Of a DNA stretch of 64,000 nt, positions 5,711 through 58,160 are shown piece by piece. The DNA comes from a virus. The stretch spans positions 64,001 to 128,000 of IMG/VR virus record IMGVR_UViG_3300031519_006853. One strand, written 5' to 3'. Numbering within the stretch: position 1 is the stretch's first letter; every line of letters begins with the position of its first letter. The position numbers and the translations under genes were made by a program. The notes below the pieces were generated by a model. The model did no database searches, had not been told where the DNA came from, and saw only the letters and a list, made by a program, of their open reading frames with translations.

Positions 5711-6417
5711 TGAAAACAATAATTATTATACCTGCAAGATGGGAATCAACTAGATTACCAGGGAAGCCTTTAGCTATGATTGGTGATAAGCCAATGATAC
5801 AACATACTTGGGAAAGGGCATGCGAATCTAATGCTGATGAGGTTATTATTGCATGTGATAGTAAAATTGTATATGATGCTGCTACTAAATTTGGGGCTAA
5901 AGTTATATGGACTCCTGGTGCAGATACAGGAACTGAAAGAGTAATAGGTGTTCAAAAAATTGAGGCTGCTGATTTTATTATTAATGTTCAAGGCGATGAA
6001 CCCTTTATTAATCCTAATGATATTAATGAAGTAATTAAAATTGTTCATAATCATCCAGATAAAGTAGCAACAATGTCAACAGATTTAACAAGTAATGAAG
6101 GAAAGGATCCTAATGTTGTTAAAGCAATACGAAATGCAATAGGTTTAGTTGGAATGTTTACTAGGAGTTCTATTTACATGAAAACTAATTTTGCATATAA
6201 GCATATTGGTTTATACGGCTATAGTGCTAAAGTACTAAACAAAATATCTGCATTAAAACCTTCAGAAAGTTCTATTAAAGACTCACTAGAGCAATTAACT
6301 TGGATGGACAATAATATACCTATTGTTGCAGGTTGGACATCTTACAAGTCATTAGGCGTTGACACAAAAGAAGATTTAAAAAATGCTAATGACTTTTATA
6401 AAACTATTCATAATTAA
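5710..6417 (+). CDS. kdsB: CMP-Kdo synthetase
   Basis: IPARWESTRLPGKPL, TGTER, INVQGDEP, HIGLYGY, SLEQL, GVDT. Confidence 0.92.
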   Translation: MKTIIIIPARWESTRLPGKPLAMIGDKPMIQHTWERACESNADEVIIACDSKIVYDAATKFGAKVIWTPGADTGTERVIGVQKIEAADFIINVQGDEPFINPNDINEVIKIVHNHPDKVATMSTDLTSNEGKDPNVVKAIRNAIGLVGMFTRSSIYMKTNFAYKHIGLYGYSAKVLNKISALKPSESSIKDSLEQLTWMDNNIPIVAGWTSYKSLGVDTKEDLKNANDFYKTIHN

Positions 6418-24694: not shown

Positions 24695-25675
24695 ATGAAT
24701 CCAAAGACTCAACTAGGTTACTGCTGTATTAATTTAAATTTACGACAAATACCGATTACTGTTAATAGAACATGTAGAAAGGCAACGTTTCAATCTGGTG
24801 GACTACCTCATGTAAGCAACCTTGCATTACAAAATATCAGAGATCTTGTAGAAATTATTAAATGGAATGAAAAGAATGGATTTAAAGTCTATCGCATGTC
24901 ATCAAACATGTTTCCGTGGATGTCAGAGTATGAACTTAAAGATTTACCAGATTACCAAAAAATATCTACAATTCTAAAAGGTGCAGGTAGGCTTGCTATT
25001 AAATATGGACAACGACTCAGTTTCCACCCTGGCCCTTTTAATGTTCTAGGATCTCCGAATCCTGTATTGGTTACTAAAACTACAAAGGAACTTAATCAAA
25101 CGGCAGAAATTATGGATATTATGGGATTAGAGCAATCTAATCATTATCCTATTAATATTCACTGCAATGGAGTTTATGGTGACAAGAAGGCTACATTACA
25201 AAGGTGGTCTGATAATTACAAAAACCTTTCAGTATCAGCTCAAGCAAGATTAGTTGTAGAGAATGATGATAAAGCATCTATGTATTCTGTAAAGGATTTA
25301 TATGATGGCATCTTCTCTGAAGTAAAGGTACCTATTACTTTTGATTTTCATCACCACAGATTTCAACCTGGTGACTTATCTGAACAAGAAGCATTTGAAT
25401 TGGCAATGACTACATGGCAATATCATAATGTAAAACCATTATTTCATTATTCATCATGCCGAAGAACATTCGAGGATCCAGGTTGTAAGGCACAAGCCCA
25501 TGCTGATTTCATATACGAACAGATTAATGATTACGGTCATGCCGTAGACATAGAAGTAGAGGCTAAAGCTAAGGAAGTGGCCGTCTTAAAATATAAAGAT
25601 GATACAGATTCATTGTTAGAATCTTATTTACCTTTTGATGTACATATTGATAATCAATTAGTACTAGAAGTTTAA
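24695..25675 (+). CDS. uvsE: UV-damage endonuclease
   Basis: LGYCCIN, YRMSS, LSFHPG, IHCNG, VENDD, FDFHHH, HYSS, HAD, EVEAK. Confidence 0.93.
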   Translation: MNPKTQLGYCCINLNLRQIPITVNRTCRKATFQSGGLPHVSNLALQNIRDLVEIIKWNEKNGFKVYRMSSNMFPWMSEYELKDLPDYQKISTILKGAGRLAIKYGQRLSFHPGPFNVLGSPNPVLVTKTTKELNQTAEIMDIMGLEQSNHYPINIHCNGVYGDKKATLQRWSDNYKNLSVSAQARLVVENDDKASMYSVKDLYDGIFSEVKVPITFDFHHHRFQPGDLSEQEAFELAMTTWQYHNVKPLFHYSSCRRTFEDPGCKAQAHADFIYEQINDYGHAVDIEVEAKAKEVAVLKYKDDTDSLLESYLPFDVHIDNQLVLEV

Positions 25676-26433: not shown

Positions 26434-26622
26434 ATGAAAAAAGCAATTGGAAATTTTATAGTAGAATTATCAGGCGAAAGCTTAATGATTAAAAATCAAA
26501 AAGGTGATTTGTTAAAAGCAGAATCAGTTAAGCCGTTCGAATCAGATGATAAGTTTAAAGAACTATGTACTAATTTAGAAGCAAAGATAGCAGATAGAAA
26601 AGCAAAAGGTTTATCTGTATAA
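26434..26622 (+). CDS. hypothetical protein
   Basis: coupled ORF. Confidence 0.6.
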   Translation: MKKAIGNFIVELSGESLMIKNQKGDLLKAESVKPFESDDKFKELCTNLEAKIADRKAKGLSV

Positions 26623-26634
26623 AAAATTAAACAC

Positions 26635-26749
26635 GGAGGGTTAGCCAAGTGGTAACGGCGCCATATCTTCTAAGGATTGAAAAGCAATGCTAGCTGCGTA
26701 AAGTAAATCTTAGGTATGGAAATCGGGAGTTCGATTCTCCCACCCACCA
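26635..26749 (+). ncRNA. tRNA-like RNA with a 42-nt insertion in the anticodon loop
   Basis: acceptor GGAGGGT/ACCCACC, D-arm GCCAAGTGGTAACGGC, stem CCATA/TATGG, T-arm GGGAG-TTCGATT-CTCCC. Confidence 0.75.
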
Positions 26750-26750
26750 G

Positions 26751-26828
26751 CTCTTAGATAGGTTAACAACCGAACAACGAGGCGTCAAATCTCACGCCTA
26801 CAAACCGAAAGGCTGAGTCTAAGTGGAG
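26751..26828 (+). ncRNA. putative structured RNA 3' of the tRNA-like gene
   Basis: CTTAGA/TCTAAG closing stem, AGGCGT/ACGCCT hairpin, CC-GAAA-GG tetraloop. Confidence 0.4.
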
Positions 26829-26847: not shown

Positions 26848-27147
26848 ATGGCAAAAATTAAATTAGAATCACATATGGGTATAGCCTTTTCAACAATAGG
26901 CGGTCAAAAATACCTATTCCCAGGATGGATCCCAGTCGAGGATCATATATCATTTAATGATGTTGAGGTTACAAATCCTTATGCAAATCAAAAATCAGAG
27001 ACTTATACAATTACTGGATCAAGAGGCGATAAATATACTGTAACAAACCGAAATGGCAAATTCTCATGTGATTGTCCTGCTGGTAAATTTAGAGGAACTT
27101 GTAAACATTCAACCCAAGTTCAAAAAGAACTCAACTTAGTTGAATAA
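26848..27147 (+). CDS. SWIM zinc-finger protein
   Basis: FSCDCPAGKFRGTCKH. Confidence 0.75.
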   Translation: MAKIKLESHMGIAFSTIGGQKYLFPGWIPVEDHISFNDVEVTNPYANQKSETYTITGSRGDKYTVTNRNGKFSCDCPAGKFRGTCKHSTQVQKELNLVE

Positions 27148-27169: not shown

Positions 27170-28204
27170 ATGCAAGGAGTATACGGAATAATAAAAACAG
27201 ATGATGCTACAGTACCCGTAGCAAATTCTAGTGTTGAATATAACAGAGATACTGATTTAGGTATTACCTTTAATACTCAACACGATTCTTCAGAACCAGG
27301 AAAAATACCAACTCCACCAGCTGGAACAACTGGAACAGTAAGTACTGTTACACCAGGATCTGGTTATACATTAGGAGAAGGTAAAACATTAGTACAGACT
27401 TCATCTACTGGTACAGGTACAGGTTTAAGAATAGCAACATCAATTGTTGAAAGTGGCGGAATATTAAAAGCAGGAAGTACGGTTAGTGTTACTGCTGGTT
27501 TTCAAACTTTTCAAAATAACCTATTAAAGAATTATACAAATTTACCAGCAGACCCATATACTTGGACAAGAAATACGGCATCTGGTGCTGCAGTAGTTGG
27601 TGGAACTACAACAGCAATTACATCAACAGGTGGATCTGGAACAGGTGCAACATTCCTAGTAACAGTTGCTACAGGGACAGTTACTAATATTACAATTAGT
27701 GATGTAGGTTCAGGATATGCAGTTGGAGATATAGTTACACTTACTGTAGCAAACTTACAAACTGCACTGAATGTTATAAATGGTAATAATGCCACAGTAA
27801 CACAAGGAGATATAAAATTAACATTAACAGCTGACAATATTTTTGGCGGTATTGGTAATGTTTCTCAAGTTAGAATTTTAACACCAGGTAAAGGTCATGC
27901 TGTAGGTGATGTTATTACATTTAAAGAAGAAGGTACAGATAATGTCGGTACAGGTTCAGTTGCTGTTGCAACATTACAAACATTAGGTGGAACTGTTATA
28001 AGTGCAACTGCACAAAATAAAACTTATCCTGCTGCAATTAGATATTCAGGTGCAGCGGCCGCTGTCATAAATGTTTTAGATTTGAACGGTACACTTGTTT
28101 CATTAGGAACAGTTCAACCTGGGCAACTAATACCATATTCATTTAGTCAAGTAGAAGGTACTACGCCAGCAGTAATTGGAACAGTGCAAGTATTATATAA
28201 GTAA
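27170..28204 (+). CDS. Thr/Gly/Val-rich putative structural (tail/baseplate-associated) protein
   Basis: three GSG[YH]xxG[DE] repeats (PGSGYTLGE, GSGYAVGD, GKGHAVGD). Confidence 0.55.
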   Translation: MQGVYGIIKTDDATVPVANSSVEYNRDTDLGITFNTQHDSSEPGKIPTPPAGTTGTVSTVTPGSGYTLGEGKTLVQTSSTGTGTGLRIATSIVESGGILKAGSTVSVTAGFQTFQNNLLKNYTNLPADPYTWTRNTASGAAVVGGTTTAITSTGGSGTGATFLVTVATGTVTNITISDVGSGYAVGDIVTLTVANLQTALNVINGNNATVTQGDIKLTLTADNIFGGIGNVSQVRILTPGKGHAVGDVITFKEEGTDNVGTGSVAVATLQTLGGTVISATAQNKTYPAAIRYSGAAAAVINVLDLNGTLVSLGTVQPGQLIPYSFSQVEGTTPAVIGTVQVLYK

Positions 28205-43149: not shown

Positions 43150-44307
43150 ATGAAAGAATTAACTACATTATCGCCAACTGCATTCGCCGCCCGTAAAGCC
43201 GAAGCTGTTAGGAACGAAGTAATGAGAAAAGAAATCAGTTTATCTGAGTTCAATGTAATCGACAATACTCATATCGAGGTTGACGGAGTAAAAATAGAAT
43301 TAACACCATTTGCCTTCAAAAGGTTATTAGGTAGGTTAAGAATACCAACGGCATTTGCTAAAAGGTTCGAAACAGGATTTGGTTCTGATGGACTACAACA
43401 ATTAGTACAGATGATGAAAACTATGAAATCATCTAAGAATGATCAAACTGTAACTCTATTGGTTGATCCAAGAGCAAAGAAAGTTACTAACATATTACCT
43501 GCAGGTTATGCAAGTATTAGTAATGAAGCATTCATTGATTTTGCTGAAGGGTATATCAATCAATACGGATTAGAGGTTAAGGACTTCGGTTCAGATCCAA
43601 ACGGTGGAGCTACAATTAACTGTGTATCTCCTAACTCTGTCTTTTCTGTTCCAGGAATGTCGGATGAAGTATTTAATACTGGTGTAACATTCAGAAATAC
43701 CCCAACCAGAGGATTAGAAGTATCGCCTTATCTAAACCGATTAGTTTGCTCAAATGGTATGTCATCAACATCATTCTCTGAAACATACGGTTTACATGAA
43801 CTAACTGATAAATCAATTAGAGAATTTAATGATCATATGATTAACATGGCATCTACAGGATTTCAACCTGTAGGATTAGCTGACAAAATTAAAATGGCAA
43901 ATAACACTGATGCATCAATTGCTGAAGTACAACGCGCAATGTCCGCTATGTTATCAACTGATAAAAAAATTGATTTTGATTACATGCAAAGGTACTTACC
44001 AATTAACCGAGTTATGAAAGCATACTCTGATATTGGAGCTGAACCATCTACCTTTACTACAAAGCAATTACAAAATGCTAAATCAGGTTTATCAATCTGG
44101 GAAGTAGTAAACGGTATAACAAACTTTGCATCCAATGATGAAAAATACAATATAGATGATCACAAAACTGGTAATCTAATGGTATCAGCTGGAAACCTTT
44201 TAATGAAAAAGAATTTTGATACTGAAGCTCTGATTCAATTTGATCCATTTGCAAATAAGCAATTGCTAAATGAAAATGAATCTGCTCGCCTAATGGGACA
44301 AGCATAA
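43150..44307 (+). CDS. DUF932-like protein
   Basis: LNRLVCSNGM motif. Confidence 0.55.
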   Translation: MKELTTLSPTAFAARKAEAVRNEVMRKEISLSEFNVIDNTHIEVDGVKIELTPFAFKRLLGRLRIPTAFAKRFETGFGSDGLQQLVQMMKTMKSSKNDQTVTLLVDPRAKKVTNILPAGYASISNEAFIDFAEGYINQYGLEVKDFGSDPNGGATINCVSPNSVFSVPGMSDEVFNTGVTFRNTPTRGLEVSPYLNRLVCSNGMSSTSFSETYGLHELTDKSIREFNDHMINMASTGFQPVGLADKIKMANNTDASIAEVQRAMSAMLSTDKKIDFDYMQRYLPINRVMKAYSDIGAEPSTFTTKQLQNAKSGLSIWEVVNGITNFASNDEKYNIDDHKTGNLMVSAGNLLMKKNFDTEALIQFDPFANKQLLNENESARLMGQA

Positions 44308-44377
44308 TATCCCAATCAACCAAAGGATGAGGTTAGTAGTTTAGATTTCCGTTTATCTACTAATCAAAAATCCACCG

Positions 44378-44414
44378 AAGGCATCTGGGTAACATTACTC
44401 AGGTGCCTTTTTTT
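44378..44414 (+). terminator. intrinsic terminator
   Basis: AAGGCATCTGGGT/ACTCAGGTGCCTT stem followed by a T-run. Confidence 0.8.
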
Positions 44415-44434
44415 GTTTAACCATATATACTAAA

Positions 44435-44551
44435 ATGGATCCAAAGGAAAAAGACTATATCGACAAGTACGACGACACGGAAAATTCCGAATACGATAGC
44501 ATCAGTGTACCAAAAGAAACAGAGTACAACGATGATGATTACGATTATTAA
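44435..44551 (+). CDS. 38-aa highly acidic peptide (not in ORF track)
   Basis: MDPKEKDYIDKYDDTENSEYDSISVPKETEYNDDDYDY. Confidence 0.45.
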   Translation: MDPKEKDYIDKYDDTENSEYDSISVPKETEYNDDDYDY

Positions 44552-44570
44552 CCAAACTTAAATATATCTT

Positions 44571-45425
44571 ATGAAAAACTTAATTAAATTAATCTGCATA
44601 GTAGTCTTATTTTTATCAGTAAATAGCTGTGGCGTCTCATGGCAAATACAATCAGTAAACCAAGCTGCTCAGGTAGATACTTTATATGATGTTGATGTAA
44701 TTACCTCTAGGAGACAATTAGATTGGAAAATGCAAAGAGATTGGAACTTTGCTAATAACTATTATTCTTTCCTACAACAACAAAACTACTCATTCTTTGT
44801 AGATCAATATTATAGTAATAGACTATATAGATTCGGATGGAATGGACCGCATGATTATTGGATGAATTGGCAATGGAACTGGCACTCAGGTTATAGCAAT
44901 AGTTGGATGTGGAATCAGTATCCTTATTATGGTAATTGGGGATCAAGTCAGTGGCACTATTATCAGAACTCAGGCCATTGGGGATACTCTCAAATTTATG
45001 GTCCAAGAACTCAGTATTTAGGAAATGTATATGGTAGTCGATATGGTCGTAGATCCTCAAATAGATCTCCCCTGTTTAATTCTAATTCTAGTAGATCTAG
45101 TATATTATTAGACTCAAAGGTCAGCACATCTGAAAGTCGCACATATAATCTAAATACAGCGTCACCAATACAAAATTCAATTATCCGTAACAACTCTAAA
45201 CCACGTGTGCTACCAAACTCAAAACCACCAATAGTCAACAACAAACCTGTAATAATCAACAAACCAATTATTCGTAATAACAACAGGCCAGTAATCAACA
45301 ATAGTAATAGCAAGCCAAGGATCAATAATTCCAGCTCTCGCCCTAATTTTAATCGACCAGTTAGTAGACCAAGTGTTCCAAAAACAAACAGTAATACTAA
45401 TAGAAAAGGCAAGAACCCTAGATAG
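44571..45425 (+). CDS. lipoprotein with W/Y-rich core and N/S/R/P low-complexity tail
   Basis: signal peptide with VNS|C lipobox; NNxPVI repeats. Confidence 0.7.
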   Translation: MKNLIKLICIVVLFLSVNSCGVSWQIQSVNQAAQVDTLYDVDVITSRRQLDWKMQRDWNFANNYYSFLQQQNYSFFVDQYYSNRLYRFGWNGPHDYWMNWQWNWHSGYSNSWMWNQYPYYGNWGSSQWHYYQNSGHWGYSQIYGPRTQYLGNVYGSRYGRRSSNRSPLFNSNSSRSSILLDSKVSTSESRTYNLNTASPIQNSIIRNNSKPRVLPNSKPPIVNNKPVIINKPIIRNNNRPVINNSNSKPRINNSSSRPNFNRPVSRPSVPKTNSNTNRKGKNPR

Positions 45426-45843
45426 ATCTGTATATACCTCTGAGCAATCGCGTATACTAGTAATACCATAATATCGGGTAGTATCTCATATTCCTTTCAG
45501 TACTATCAGTTAATCCGTTCCGGGAGTCCGATACGCTGAAACTGGCTCATGACTTACAGTTCCAGAGTACTGTGATATATACTAGCTTAAATGGTCCTTT
45601 TCTGTACTCCTGTGATAACCTTTTATCTACTCTAAGTACTCTCATTAACTGTAAGTACACTCAAACGGCCTTTCCAGTGGTCAATGTCTAGTTGAGAAAT
45701 CCAAATCATTCGGCACATGCTAACACCTGACCTAGGCCTCCAGAATCCTACCGAGCTGAATCTGTACTCTGAAGAATCACCAAGATGTACTCATATAGCT
45801 ATAATACTGTACTTAGACAGGAAATACCCTGGTTGAGCGAAGC
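45426..45843. other. non-coding island rich in GTAC
   Basis: 8 GTAC between 45500 and 45812; no ORF >=60 aa across 45470-45784. Confidence 0.6.
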
Positions 45844-45940
45844 AATTGTTAATAACTTTTTGAAAATAACTGCCTGGTTATGGCTACAATCGCATAGAAT
45901 TGATTATATTTATATTATAATAATTAAAACAAACGGAAAT
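45844..45940 (+). promoter_or_regulatory. class I element, copy 6/9
   Basis: same motif. Confidence 0.75.
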
Positions 45941-46333
45941 ATGAAAATTCAAAATTTTGCAAAAGGTAATCTACAAACCCTTAGAGTAGACATGGACAAA
46001 GCACTACAATCAGTTGCTAAGAAATACGGTATTACAATCCACGCTGGTAACGCTAGCTTCAGTGGTAACGAATGTACCTTCAAAGTTAAATGCAATACAG
46101 TAGGATCTGATGGTACTGCTATTACTAGGGAAGCTACTAACTGGGATCGCTATAAAGGACTCCACGGTATGGATCATCTAAATGTTGGTGATACTATTAC
46201 TATCCAAGGTTCTCCTTATATACTAACAGGATTTAATAGTAGAGCAAGAAAGGCTCCTATTAATTTTAAGAACTCAGCAGGCTCTGGTTATAAATGTTCA
46301 GTAAGAATGTTACTAATGGAAAACTCTAAATAA
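45941..46333 (+). CDS. hypothetical protein (early module)
   Basis: start MKIQNF follows the repeated element. Confidence 0.65.
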   Translation: MKIQNFAKGNLQTLRVDMDKALQSVAKKYGITIHAGNASFSGNECTFKVKCNTVGSDGTAITREATNWDRYKGLHGMDHLNVGDTITIQGSPYILTGFNSRARKAPINFKNSAGSGYKCSVRMLLMENSK

Positions 46334-46334
46334 T

Positions 46335-46592
46335 ATGGCAATGAATCTACAGTATATTTCGGAAGAATCGGTACAACAATTTATAGATGGAATGGATGAG
46401 GTTACAACTGAATCTCTTCTAGAAGATCCAGGAGTTGAGGAACTACTAACTGGCTCTGTACCTCCACAAATACAGGAGCACGATAATCCTCTTGGTACTA
46501 TAGAATCCTTTCTACAACTTTTTATAGATCGTGAGGAATATGAGATTTGTGCTAAACTGGTCGAGGTACATCCAGAGCTATGCAAAAACTAG
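46335..46592 (+). CDS. small acidic protein with UVR-like motif
   Basis: FIDREEYEICAKL. Confidence 0.55.
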   Translation: MAMNLQYISEESVQQFIDGMDEVTTESLLEDPGVEELLTGSVPPQIQEHDNPLGTIESFLQLFIDREEYEICAKLVEVHPELCKN

Positions 46593-47310
46593 GCAAAATA
46601 TGATGTAAAAACACTCCTTTTTAGGGTGCTAATACCAGGTCTTCTAGACAGCCGCTCTAGAGGGCCTATATTAGTGTGTTATTTGGGCACTATTTGGGCA
46701 TATATAGCCTATATAGAGCGTCCAGTATCGTCAACTATCGTCTAGACCGCCCTATATACACCCTCTAGAGCACTAATATAGCCTATATGGCACCCTATTG
46801 TCCGCTCGAGTCAGCTACATGCCGCTAGTATCGTCATATATAGGTATATAGGGTCCATAGACTGCTATAGCCGCTAACCTCACGCCACAGACCAAAATAG
46901 CCTGCTACGACCACCACAGCACTAAAACAACTACTAAATCATCAATAACCCTAGTACGGTCTAGACAGGCTATAGGGCTCGCTGGACCACCCTAGCAAGC
47001 AACTACCATAGTATAGCAACAAGACAAGCAACTAGCTATATAGTAGACTAGTGGTAGTGGTAGCCATGTGGTAGTGGTCAACCAGGCAATGGTAGCAAGA
47101 GAGCAATAAAGTGAATCTTTCTCTTAAGGTGTATTTTTCTCTTGGGAATCTAGAGGTCTACTGGGCGCATGACTTTTACTAGTCCAGAAATTTCCAGCCA
47201 GAAAAAAGAGCTAGTCCAGATATGTGAACCGATTGCTATGTCTATTCGGATCATTTCTAGTCTGGAAAAAATTGGGCCCGAAAAAAATATGACTAAATAA
47301 ACTCTTACTA
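46593..47310. repeat. GC-richer non-coding island with palindromes and nested inverted repeats
   Basis: 6 TCTAGA, about 15 CTAG, CCCTATATAC/GTATATAGGG, ACTACCA/TGGTAGT, CTAGTC[CT][AG]GA x3. Confidence 0.75.
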
Positions 47311-47314
47311 CACT

Positions 47315-47344
47315 TTCAGTTACCTACAGGACTTGTTATAATTA
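47315..47344 (+). promoter_or_regulatory. class I core only
   Basis: TTCAGT-N15-TTATAATTA. Confidence 0.55.
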
Positions 47345-47370
47345 TATTAAACAATAACTAATAAAAGACT

Positions 47371-47529
47371 ATGTACGAAGCACTCACTCAAAACTCAACT
47401 GACTTAACAAGTATCTCTCATACCCTCGAAGCTATCAGTCTATCGTTGCAACTCCTAGTATACATGGGGATCTGTATTACGGTAGTATACACTGGTAACA
47501 AAATTAATAATTGGACTAAGAAGGCATAA
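47371..47529 (+). CDS. small membrane protein (not in ORF track)
   Basis: MYEALTQN..., follows a core promoter motif. Confidence 0.4.
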   Translation: MYEALTQNSTDLTSISHTLEAISLSLQLLVYMGICITVVYTGNKINNWTKKA

Positions 47530-47531
47530 GC

Positions 47532-47915
47532 ATGAAACTATTATACTGTAATACCTGCAGGGACATCGTGAAACTATCAAGAACTACCAGAACTTGCCAA
47601 TGCGGCGCGACTGGTGGACACTATAAGGAAGACGGATTAAACGCGATCTATTACGGTCCTGCTATTCCATTAGGTTTCGCTAACTCTAGTTTCCGTGATG
47701 CTCGAGATAATCAACCTGAGTTTGGTATGGGTACTGTCTACAACGCATTTGTTATTCCGAAGGTCTGTCCGACTATGGAACATGTAGATCTATTAGATTA
47801 TACAGAAGTTTTTGATATTGAGGAAGATGAGTACAGTGTTGATATTATGATGGCAAGAGCTGAGGATGAAAGAAAACAACGTAAACTTAGAAATGTATTT
47901 AAAGATGAAGACTAA
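47532..47915 (+). CDS. zinc-ribbon protein
   Basis: YCNTC...TCQCG. Confidence 0.65.
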   Translation: MKLLYCNTCRDIVKLSRTTRTCQCGATGGHYKEDGLNAIYYGPAIPLGFANSSFRDARDNQPEFGMGTVYNAFVIPKVCPTMEHVDLLDYTEVFDIEEDEYSVDIMMARAEDERKQRKLRNVFKDED

Positions 47916-48126
47916 AGTAATTAAATTTTGTGAAGGTTGCTTATACGGCGTAGGATATGGATTTATGATTGCAATGGGACTACTGATTATTTGTAGTATC
48001 TCATTTGCTTTCTATAATTTGTTCTTAGAGCTGTTTAGTTAACTATGTGCTTTCAGAGTATAAAATGTGCGACAGATGTGCGACCGCCCTATAAAGAATG
48101 CAAGTATTAATAATAAATATAGAAAT

Positions 48127-55845: not shown

Positions 55846-56258
55846 AGAACTTTCATAAAAGGTTTAAAGTTATGTTGACCATATTCATCTCTTAAAATTT
55901 GACCTACAGCTAATGCAAAATCAGCATAAGACATTGAGTCATCTATTTTAATCATTGCTTTATCCATTGCTTTTGCTAAAGCTTCAGACTTTTTAGATTC
56001 AAATATATCAAAAGGAGGTACATGATTTTCATTTTGAGTTTTATCATCCTCATGTTCTTCTTCCCAGTGTGGACTTTTAATATCTTTATCTCTAGTAGGA
56101 TGAACATCAAATCCTTGTCTTACTGGACTATCATACGCGTTAGTATCTTTACCATCTGCTAAGTCGTCAAACATTTGTTTAAACTGGCCAACTGTACCTT
56201 TATAATGTCTAATTGTATCTTGGTCTTTTCTTGACTGATCTTCTTCCTTTGGGTCCAT
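55824..56258 (-). CDS. putative virion-internal protein
   Basis: coupled to the upstream minus-strand gene; internal VPPFDIFE|S. Confidence 0.55.
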   Translation of the reverse strand: MDPKEEDQSRKDQDTIRHYKGTVGQFKQMFDDLADGKDTNAYDSPVRQGFDVHPTRDKDIKSPHWEEEHEDDKTQNENHVPPFDIFESKKSEALAKAMDKAMIKIDDSMSYADFALAVGQILRDEYGQHNFKPFMKVLHKDLGM

Positions 56259-57157
56259 TACTTTTTATATTTTTGCTTAAGCTGATGTATTTGTGTTTGT
56301 ATCTTTAATCTTTGCAAATCCATTTTGTCAAGTGATACTCTTAATTGATAATATTGAACGGCGAAAGGATCTTCTCTATCTTGCGCAGCTCTAAATCTTT
56401 CAATGTTTTGCTGTTCTCTTCTTTTTAATCTTTCAGCTGTTTCATTTGGATTAAATTCATGTTTAGCAGCTTCGGTAACTCCATCATTACCATCCATCGT
56501 ATCGTGAACTGAATTTAGATTTTTAACTGAGTCTGAGATTTTAGAATACATCCAAGCATCTAATGTTTGACCTTGTGACATTCTATCTTTAATCATATCA
56601 GCATAATCAGCGATTCTTTCAAGATCGGTATTTGCCATTTTATTTAAACCGCCTATAGTATCTTCACCTTCAATAACTACTGATTCATTTTCCATTACAT
56701 AAACATAATCTTCACCATCTTCCTTTGCTTTCTTCTTAGCCCATTTCTGAGCATCTGGCCATGACATCCCGTTTGGAATTTGCCACTCATCAGATCCATC
56801 ACGATTATATGAGAACATCCATCCACCATATCCTTTAGGTTTCTTACCATGAGATCTTACGTATCTTTCGGTTTCAATCTTAGCGGCTTCGGTAACTGCT
56901 GATTCACTAAATAATCTCTTACCAGTGTTATCTTCTAAATGTAATAGTGCTTTAGGATACTTTTCTTGCATTACATTAAACGTTGCAGGAGCAACATCTG
57001 GTGTACTTACTGGTTCTTGGTGTATTACCTTACCATCCTGTACAACTACAATTACTGCAGGATAACTTCCCTGCTTTGCAGCCTTGTGTACTTTACGCCT
57101 AGATGCCTCATTTACACTAAAGGATTCAAATCCTGGTATTAAATCTATACTTGCCAT
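56258..57157 (-). CDS. putative head-processed polyprotein
   Basis: IPGFESFSVNE|A; ESAVTE|A; ESVVIE|G; GVTE|A. Confidence 0.6.
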   Translation of the reverse strand: MASIDLIPGFESFSVNEASRRKVHKAAKQGSYPAVIVVVQDGKVIHQEPVSTPDVAPATFNVMQEKYPKALLHLEDNTGKRLFSESAVTEAAKIETERYVRSHGKKPKGYGGWMFSYNRDGSDEWQIPNGMSWPDAQKWAKKKAKEDGEDYVYVMENESVVIEGEDTIGGLNKMANTDLERIADYADMIKDRMSQGQTLDAWMYSKISDSVKNLNSVHDTMDGNDGVTEAAKHEFNPNETAERLKRREQQNIERFRAAQDREDPFAVQYYQLRVSLDKMDLQRLKIQTQIHQLKQKYKK

Positions 57158-57158
57158 A

Positions 57159-57644
57159 TTAAAATGTTGAATTTATAATTAGTTCTTGGATCTCACTTAT
57201 TAATTGTTTCTTCTCTCTTGATCCTTTTGGATTTCTTCCGTTAATTGCACTTATGTAATTTTTGTCAATTAAATAATCTGAAATTACTGTTGCTAATACT
57301 TTTGCTCCAGATGGTTTATCTTTTCCAGCTACTTGAACCATTGCTTCATCCATAGAACCGTAGTTTTCATATGCTCTATCCATAGATTCATTTACATGCT
57401 TCTTAGCTTCTTTAAGATATGATTCAGCTGTATGATCATTATTATCATTAGTTTCATACATGTTTGCTTGTTCAGCAATATGATTTGAACATGATTCAAT
57501 AATTCCTGTAACAGGAGTCATACTATATCCAGTTTCTGGTGTTGCACCACCTAATCCAAAATTCTGGATTCCTGATTGCCCAAAACCCATAACTGCAATT
57601 TCTTCATTTACTTCGAATTTATCAAAATTTGGTATCTTACTCAT
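57159..57644 (-). CDS. putative virion-internal protein
   Basis: MSKIPNFDKFEVNE; SMDE|A. Confidence 0.55.
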   Translation of the reverse strand: MSKIPNFDKFEVNEEIAVMGFGQSGIQNFGLGGATPETGYSMTPVTGIIESCSNHIAEQANMYETNDNNDHTAESYLKEAKKHVNESMDRAYENYGSMDEAMVQVAGKDKPSGAKVLATVISDYLIDKNYISAINGRNPKGSREKKQLISEIQELIINSTF

Positions 57645-57674
57645 AATTAGTTTTATATTTGTTTATATATTTGT

Positions 57675-57701
57675 AAACAAACATTAAGTTGTTGCATATA
57701 A
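57675..57701 (+). promoter_or_regulatory. class II motif (spacer +1)
   Basis: AAAC-N16-CATATAA. Confidence 0.45.
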
Positions 57702-57715
57702 AAATAAACACAATT

Positions 57716-57901
57716 ATGTCAGAATTTTTTAGAACAGCGATGGGTCGTAAATTAATTGATGGAGATATACCTAATTTGGTAAATGTCTTAGAAAGAATTG
57801 CAACTCAATTAGAAAGAAAAAACAAATTAGAGGAAAAGAAATTTATATTAGAAGAAAAAATCCAAAGACTTACAATAAAAGAATCAAATAAAAATGGCTA
57901 A
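57716..57901 (+). CDS. hypothetical phage protein
   Basis: MSEFFRTAMGRKLIDGDIP; start moved. Confidence 0.6.
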   Translation: MSEFFRTAMGRKLIDGDIPNLVNVLERIATQLERKNKLEEKKFILEEKIQRLTIKESNKNG

Positions 57902-58160
57902 AGGGGATATTACATATAAACAATTTATTGCTCACATGGATAAGGGTAGTAAAGTTTATATGAAAAAACCTAAGTCATGGCAAAAAGTCTGGTTTTGGTG
58001 GGAGAGCAAAAAAGACAAATGGTTTTTAAATAAAGCATTTGATAAAAGAACAGATGGAAGAGTAGAACCAGAGCCTTCAGTATGGATAACTGCAAAACAA
58101 ATGGACTCTCATTTTAATTTTATGTCAAGACAAGGTTATAAATATCATATAGATGAATAA
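57894..58160 (+). CDS. hypothetical protein
   Basis: ORF. Confidence 0.55.
   Translation: MAKGDITYKQFIAHMDKGSKVYMKKPKSWQKVWFWWESKKDKWFLNKAFDKRTDGRVEPEPSVWITAKQMDSHFNFMSRQGYKYHIDE

Follow-up and report, generated by a model that had tools for sequence, protein, structure and literature searches.

What kind of RNA is encoded by a tRNA-shaped sequence whose anticodon arm encloses some 40 additional nucleotides? The sequence is located at positions 26635–26749 of a 64,000 nt stretch of viral DNA (termed the window; positions 64,001–128,000 of IMG/VR record IMGVR_UViG_3300031519_006853), and a preliminary description had presented it as a tRNA body with a 42 nt structured insertion. All positions below are those of the window unless stated otherwise. 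The source record is 181,663 bp in length, is approximately 65% complete, has a G+C content of approximately 30% and carries its genes on the + strand. It displays a match to the T4 Gp23 capsid family, and the entity that hosts the tRNA-shaped RNA is a large marine phage.

Default ARAGORN and an Rfam gathering scan detect three ordinary tRNAs in the window and give no call at the locus. With relaxed filters, the Rfam tRNA model (RF00005) matches the locus with 43.9 bits (gathering threshold 29, E-value = 3e-8) and shows a 48 nt insertion in the anticodon loop. When introns are allowed, ARAGORN reports a tRNA-Arg(tct) with a 6 bp anticodon stem, the loop CUUCUAA and a 40 nt "intron". The tRNA body, the insert and the A:A mismatch in the acceptor stem, all of which the preliminary description had proposed, are thus real. 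Its removal of 42 nt to give a loop UCUUAGG was arbitrary; the excision preferred by ARAGORN is the 40 nt one.

The hallmarks of RF00005 are present, i.e. acceptor, D and T arms with the conserved elbow nucleotides. A canonical 5 bp anticodon stem closing a 7 nt loop with a free U33 is absent, and an 8 bp stem encloses 43 nt. The A:A mismatch at acceptor pair 3:70 is common to six relatives. One acceptor mismatch, at pair 3:70, 4:69 or 5:68, is found in 26 of the 35 copies of the window's clade (columns 3–5 with 119–121 of alignment A2, see below), and the acceptor stems of a second clade (alignment A3) are perfect. An exact-pattern scan with the D and T arms of this copy gave no match.

Table 1. 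Features of the two-module RNA and of the open reading frame upstream of it (window positions).
Feature	Position	Strand	Remarks
62 aa open reading frame	26434–26622		element directly 3′ of it in most copies of the window's clade
tRNA-like module	26635–26749	+	Rfam tRNA 43.9 bits; ARAGORN intron mode; acceptor, D and T stems covary
Acceptor stem	26635–26641 with 26742–26748	+	A:A mismatch at pair 3:70
D arm	26644–26659	+	
Extended anticodon arm	26661–26719	+	8 bp stem 26661–26668 with 26712–26719; RNAalifold and pair counts
5 nt bulge UCUAA	26669–26673	+	holds the nominal anticodon UCU of ARAGORN
Helix X, 5 bp	26674–26678 with 26706–26710	+	within 26674–26710; covaries
Internal loop	26679–26683 / 26700–26705	+	GAA / AGUA pattern, by eye
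Apical hairpin	26684–26699	+	2 bp closing helix 26684–26685 with 26698–26699, 12 nt loop; closing pairs covary
Palindrome GCTAGC	26689–26694	+	in the 12 nt apical loop
Variable loop	26720–26724	+	
T arm	26725–26741	+	
Discriminator A	26749	+	
3′ domain, four-way junction	26750–26828	+	P1′, P2′ and P4′ covary; P3′ never varies
P1′ closing helix	26753–26758 with 26818–26823	+	covaries, AU25/GC8 and GC30/AU4
P2′ hairpin	26761–26771	+	covaries
Joining strand	26772–26779	+	
P3′ hairpin	26780–26799	+	invariant in stem and loop
P4′ GAAA hairpin	26804–26813	+	covaries; loop always GAAA
Tail	26824–26828	+	

A relative found by way of its UvdE gene (L003) carries the same kind of gene, which ARAGORN calls Lys-CUU with a 40 nt intron. 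In a comparison of the window with L003, conservation is higher in the approximately 80 nt that follow the tRNA-like part than within that part. A 23 nt piece of this downstream region was used as a scan query and is found in 23 IMG/VR contigs. A query with the 12 stem positions of the central hairpin left free detects the same 23 contigs together with 91 marine metagenome stretches. The family comprises 116 copies, all on contigs of marine viruses or marine metagenomes, and 71 different sequences are left when copies identical over the full element are counted once. The central hairpin is identical in all copies. Each copy of the 3′ domain is immediately preceded by a tRNA-like gene whose anticodon arm is enlarged, and the domain begins at the base after the discriminator with no gap.

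The distribution is confined to phages. A single chance match on a Rhizobiales contig, which has neither the hairpin nor a tRNA, was obtained from 185,579 prokaryote species genomes, and these contain no true copy. There is also no match in 50,697 isolate-phage records (megablast, blastn with the element and tblastn with a neighboring 561 aa protein). Rfam 15 holds no family for the downstream domain even at E-values up to 10, and the motif sequence occurs in none of the papers covered by a literature search. As far as Rfam 15 and these papers go, the family is an undescribed two-part RNA.

Alignment A2 is made up of 35 copies that belong to the window type or to the L003 type. A structure drawn by hand on this alignment has 96.5% of the cells paired, with two-sided changes at 18 pairs. 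Not one of 500 shuffles is as good, and slid controls are 33%–45% paired. RNAalifold, run independently on A2, arrives at this fold too, with an anticodon stem that is extended to 8 bp. The second clade (A3, 23 sequences) has the same plan with different sequences: 96% of the cells are paired, helix X and the apical stem covary, the bulge is 4–5 nt long, the discriminator varies between A, C and G, and nothing resembles a 7 nt anticodon loop. Covariation between relatives, which the preliminary description had named as a check, is therefore present in the insert as well as in the arms.

The anticodon stem continues for three pairs past the canonical five. These three form in all 35 sequences and show compensated changes, with counts in A2 of UA16/CG10/UG9, CG17/UA9/UG9 and UA32/AU3. 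As the anticodon stem runs for 8 bp, the would-be tRNA positions 32 and 33 have their pairing partners inside the supposed intron. The bulge that follows reads CUUAA (12), UUUAA (9), UCUAA (8), CUCAA (2) or UAUAA (1) in relatives, with three 8 nt variants, and UUAA or UAUAA in the other clade; the final AA is the sole part kept in all copies. Helix X shows CG18/GU17 and AU21/GU14 in A2, and AU12/GC9 and CG10/UA8 in A3. The internal loop may resemble a loop-E motif. The apical hairpin predicted by single-sequence minimum free energy folding has no backing from the relatives in A2 and was rejected. The pairing of CTAAG with CTTAG, by which the insert had been thought to extend the helix, can form in this copy, however the covarying register is a different one, i.e. 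that of the 8 bp stem and helix X. The CTAAG/CTTAG register is broken in L116 and is missing in L003-type copies.

A palindrome of at least 6 nt is present in the insert of all 71 distinct copies, e.g. GCUAGC, ACUAGU, GAGCUC and GAUAUC, and it sits in a hairpin loop in all of these but one (L128). The three core pairs of the palindrome are self-complementary in 35 of 35 A2 sequences and each changes on both sides; other clades display different palindromes at the same site. Approximately 47 of 71 shuffled AT-rich inserts also hold a 6 nt palindrome, thus it is the fixed position and the compensated changes, not the presence of a palindrome, that constitute the evidence. Two clades with large inserts have two hairpin loops each with the same palindrome, and the palindrome differs between these clades. 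A 6 nt palindrome cannot fold on itself. The simplest reading would be that the loops of different molecules pair or, in copies with two loops, that these two pair with each other, and since the sequence of the palindrome varies while its self-complementarity stays, pairing of the kissing-loop type is suggested. To our knowledge there is no tRNA-bodied example of kissing-loop self-association. The HIV-1 DIS, phi29 pRNA and the homo-oligomers of ROOL and GOLLD (PMC12286853), all with kissing-loop self-association, likewise display an exposed loop in which self-complementarity is conserved and the sequence is variable. They are unrelated in sequence and context to the RNA described here, whose dimerization is a prediction.

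The span given in the preliminary description is too short. A domain of 79 nt that forms a four-way junction starts directly after the discriminator, and so the conserved unit reaches to about position 26828, beyond 26749. Covariation backs three of the four helices of this domain. The remaining one, the invariant P3′ hairpin, points to a partner that may be sequence-specific. A covariance model of the domain (R1) scores 106.7 bits on the window and detects a single copy per contig in four other carriers, and no copy in five related contigs of 167–181 kb (87%–100% complete). Applied to 80 relative loci found through UvdE and to the five contigs, R1 gives only the window, L003 and spurious matches in coding regions.

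The contigs that carry the unit are 167–212 kb in length with an estimated completeness of 56%–76%, which suggests carrier genomes of approximately 280–300 kb. They appear to be fragments of genomes much larger than those of the complete 170–180 kb non-carriers. In most carrier genomes the two-module unit is part of a tRNA array, with tRNA-Arg(UCU) as its immediate upstream neighbor. In the window's clade the unit comes after the conserved 62 aa open reading frame, which has a conserved C-terminus, displays 84% identity in the relative L002 and is without a Pfam or PHROG match. L002 (IMGVR_UViG_3300023109_000032), whose UvdE is 94% identical, shows at positions 5840–5960 an exact empty site for the whole cassette: the leader after the 62 aa open reading frame is continued without interruption by the sequence that, in L003-type loci, flanks the element downstream. 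As this site lacks both parts, the tRNA-like module and the 3′ domain have been gained or lost together as one cassette.

Other features of the region were also recorded. A gene for the UV-damage endonuclease UvdE is located at positions 24695–25675 (Pfam PF03851, E-value = 7.8e-55) and has at least 596 relatives in IMG/VR. A 99 aa open reading frame at 26848–27147 has no Pfam match, is 82% identical in L002 and, by eye, displays a CxC...CxH pattern (SWIM-like zinc finger) near its C-terminus. A search for relatives of the neighboring protein at 27170–28204 gave none. A phage-encoded tmRNA gene is predicted by ARAGORN beside tRNA-Ala(tgc) at record positions 43184–43605, upstream of the window. 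The local G+C content rises to 0.35–0.39, as against approximately 0.30, at 44001–48000 and 56001–58000, and about 10 kb beyond this rise both GC and AT skew become negative; the two observations suggest an island and a short opposite-strand block. A scan for promoters and terminators gave nothing that exceeds the shuffled background. L003-type loci (e.g. L127 and L178) have a conserved short palindromic hairpin followed by a T run 1–40 nt past the 3′ domain, which could be the terminator of the element. This hairpin is not present after the copy in the window.

Taken as a whole, positions 26635–26828 are best explained as one non-coding RNA of approximately 194 nt, composed of two fused modules, that does not decode and from which the 40–42 nt insert is probably not removed. 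This reading is considered likely, with room left for the alternatives that follow. The RNA probably mimics a tRNA without decoding, and carries a conserved effector domain as its second module. A tRNA mimic, with a putative decoy function, was among the possibilities raised in the preliminary description, and the mimic fits the data: the insert is conserved and covaries, the unit exists in 116 copies and sister clades have no anticodon-like loop.

The locus may alternatively be a true tRNA-Arg(UCU) with an intron, where a host or phage enzyme removes 40 nt (26674–26713) and the 3′ domain is a trailer. The ARAGORN call with its canonical CUUCUAA loop is in agreement with this. The bulge and the two bases that precede it make up a textbook Arg-UCU anticodon loop in the window's copy, the corresponding bases of relatives read as loops for Lys(CUU), Lys(UUU) and Ile(UAU), and the short introns predicted in Lak megaphage tRNAs provide a precedent (PMC6784885). 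Because the bulges of the window's clade can be read as Arg, Lys or Ile loops, a role in decoding or in display of an anticodon is possible. However the spliced product would carry a 6 bp anticodon stem, and the partners of loop positions 32 and 33, which show compensated changes, lie in the "intron". Pre-tRNA introns can be structured too; in this family selection keeps pairs that excision would destroy. Also absent is the bulge-helix-bulge motif, which consists of two 3 nt bulges with a 4 bp helix between them at the exon-intron borders. In the fold backed by covariation, the 5′ strand has a single bulge, of 5 nt, and the 3′ strand a single unpaired base. The bulges of other clades are 4–5 nt long and contain no anticodon, 26 of 35 copies have acceptor mismatches, and the genome already has a normal tRNA-Arg(UCU) separate from the tRNA-like gene (ARAGORN). 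A search of the 181 kb record for a splicing endonuclease, RtcB or an Rnl2-type ligase (PF01974, PF01139, PF09414), i.e. the ligase and endonuclease genes that the preliminary description had suggested looking for, gave no match, and neither did searches for TROVE and a CCA-adding-type enzyme; as the record is a 65% fragment, the absence of splicing and ligase genes is weak evidence. Contigs from marine RNA libraries are unspliced. One, from a relative, spans 26648–26812 and is uninterrupted across both the insert and the module junction, and a second, also from a relative, has a diverged but full-length insert, with contaminating DNA a possible source of both; being contigs, they do not yield starts, ends or expression levels. 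An intron-containing tRNA is accordingly improbable, and the suggestion of a mini-intron spliced by proteins is not borne out. A group I intron was considered separately and is ruled out: the insert is 40–42 nt long and has no Rfam intron match, and the self-splicing core of group I introns has approximately 200 nt or more.

Still less credible, to the point of near exclusion, is a decaying tRNA pseudogene or integration (att) scar. The mismatch in the acceptor stem and the TCTT repeat at the borders of the insert (26666 and 26708) are what such a history might leave behind. The repeat is indeed present as described, however a flanking 4-mer repeat of this kind occurs in approximately 15% of random 49-mers of the window, i.e. 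it is at chance level, and it is kept in only 11 of 35 relatives. Moreover decay is at odds with 116 copies and strong covariation in the insert itself, and no true copy is found in the prokaryote species genomes.

The 3′ domain could instead be a cis-acting processing element, i.e. a new self-cleaving ribozyme or a guide for a nuclease, cut after the discriminator to release a tRNA-like RNA without CCA. The start of the domain, which in all copies is immediately behind the discriminator, the compact junction, the GNRA loops and the invariant joining strands are consistent with this role, as are the precedent of theta ribozymes beside phage tRNAs (PMC10879173) and a CCA-adding-type gene near the element in carrier G006. 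However no Rfam ribozyme family matches at E-values up to 10, the topology is by inspection unlike that of HDV-like ribozymes and hatchet, and the RNA-library contig from a relative crosses the junction uncut. A processing element is thus unlikely, although it deserves to be kept in mind. Another reading, which is very improbable, is that the palindrome and the invariant hairpin act as DNA, serving as an operator for a protein, an origin or a site of recombination, and that the RNA fold is a mere by-product. In agreement with this, covariation is absent from the P3′ stem, the palindromes are perfect as DNA too and the unit behaves as a cassette. A palindrome that changes while it keeps its self-complementarity nevertheless fits base pairing better than one fixed DNA site, and the other helices tolerate G:U pairs throughout, a signature of RNA.

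Several known RNAs display likenesses to the one described here. Species 1 (rnaC, 139 nt) and species 2 (rnaD, 119 nt) of T4 are small non-decoding RNAs of a T4-type phage, as is the case here, and rnaD and rnaC lie directly after tRNA-Arg(UCU), which is the same place as that of most copies of this family. rnaC in addition has a T arm and an acceptor-like stem. However there is no similarity by sequence or by model, and the position after tRNA-Arg is all that is common; the best R1 score in the T4 tRNA region is 7.4 bits and falls outside of rnaC and rnaD. The T4 RNAs also lack the invariant 3′ domain, and no palindromic apical loop has been noted in them.

YrlA-type Y RNAs (RF02553) are likewise non-decoding and have a tRNA-like module joined to a second module. 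The two ends of YrlA RNA are in the Ro-binding stem, and the topology is the opposite of the one found here, where the RNA has its ends at the acceptor stem and the tail. There is no RF02553 match and no Ro/TROVE gene in the 181 kb record, which is a fragment.

The tRNAs of Lak megaphages have predicted "enigmatic" introns (Devoto et al. 2019, PMC6784885). These and the present insert are short, conserved, located in phage tRNA-shaped genes and reported by tRNA finders only in intron mode. The Lak inserts, however, are in otherwise assignable tRNAs, and one of them may itself encode a tRNA (PMC6784885). Unlike these, the insert here forms a covarying rod capped by a palindromic loop and lies in a gene to which a second domain is fused. 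In both cases splicing is at most a prediction. Theta (minimal HDV-like) ribozymes adjoin phage tRNAs (Kienbeck et al. 2024, PMC10879173) and are, as is the 3′ domain, structured RNAs directly 3′ of a phage tRNA-shaped gene. Theta ribozymes are a nested double pseudoknot with P1 formed from the cleavage site, whereas here the fold is a four-way junction in which the first strand pairs with the far 3′ end, and Rfam gives no match to an HDV-type ribozyme. In hatchet a P1 hairpin comes directly after the cleavage site and is followed by P2–P4 (PMC4604424). This topology also differs from that of the 3′ domain, and there is no Rfam match to it.

How a two-module, non-decoding RNA of this kind might function can be outlined from its anatomy. 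Because the first module keeps its acceptor, D and T arms, the L-shape should persist, with the anticodon arm forming a long rod (8 bp stem, 5 nt bulge, 5 bp helix and internal loop) that would expose the palindrome in its 12 nt terminal loop. The second module begins at the base after the discriminator and folds as a compact four-way junction with the invariant hairpin. The RNA would be made as its own unit or inside the tRNA array, and RNase P may trim its 5′ end by way of the tRNA body. The 3′ domain would remain joined, or would be removed only at the discriminator, and the RNA would then be uncharged. A gene for a PolyA_pol / CCA-adding-type nucleotidyltransferase is present in two of the four other carriers (G006, 185553–185930, which is 2.2 kb downstream of the element, and G008, 138137–138514) and none is seen in the source record or in the G007 and G009 fragments. 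As two of the four encode such an enzyme, maturation at the discriminator is possible.

Two molecules may then pair through their palindromic loops to give a symmetric dimer; in the two-loop clades the pairing may take place within one molecule, or multimers may be built. The complex would show a tRNA shape and the invariant domain to a conserved partner, which may be a tRNA-binding factor of the host or phage, e.g. a processing enzyme or a tRNA-targeting defense nuclease. The best guess is a dimerizing tRNA-shaped RNA that engages a conserved tRNA-handling factor by means of its invariant domain. A wider proposal can be offered only tentatively, and is more doubtful than the two-module reading itself: that this is a self-associating class of phage RNA built on a tRNA scaffold, with molecules joined by palindromic loops and each bearing an invariant four-way-junction domain that would be a new RNA with catalytic activity or with binding to a ligand or protein, by which marine jumbo phages capture or disarm a conserved tRNA-handling factor of the host.

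The 8 bp stem and the homology of the bulge, the empty site, the clades with two loops and the comparison with T4 are the additions made by this analysis. A consequence for annotation is that tRNA finders in intron mode will label such genes as tRNA-Arg, tRNA-Lys or tRNA-Ile with introns. If the 3′ domain is indeed catalytic, or binds a defense nuclease, it would represent a new class of RNA. tRNA-like RNAs of phages such as species 1 and 2 of T4 are still without an explanation. The present family is rich in natural variants and covaries clearly, it forms a discrete cassette for which an empty-site relative exists, and it has a self-pairing loop and an invariant domain; because of these variants and testable features the role of non-decoding tRNA look-alikes in phages could become experimentally approachable.
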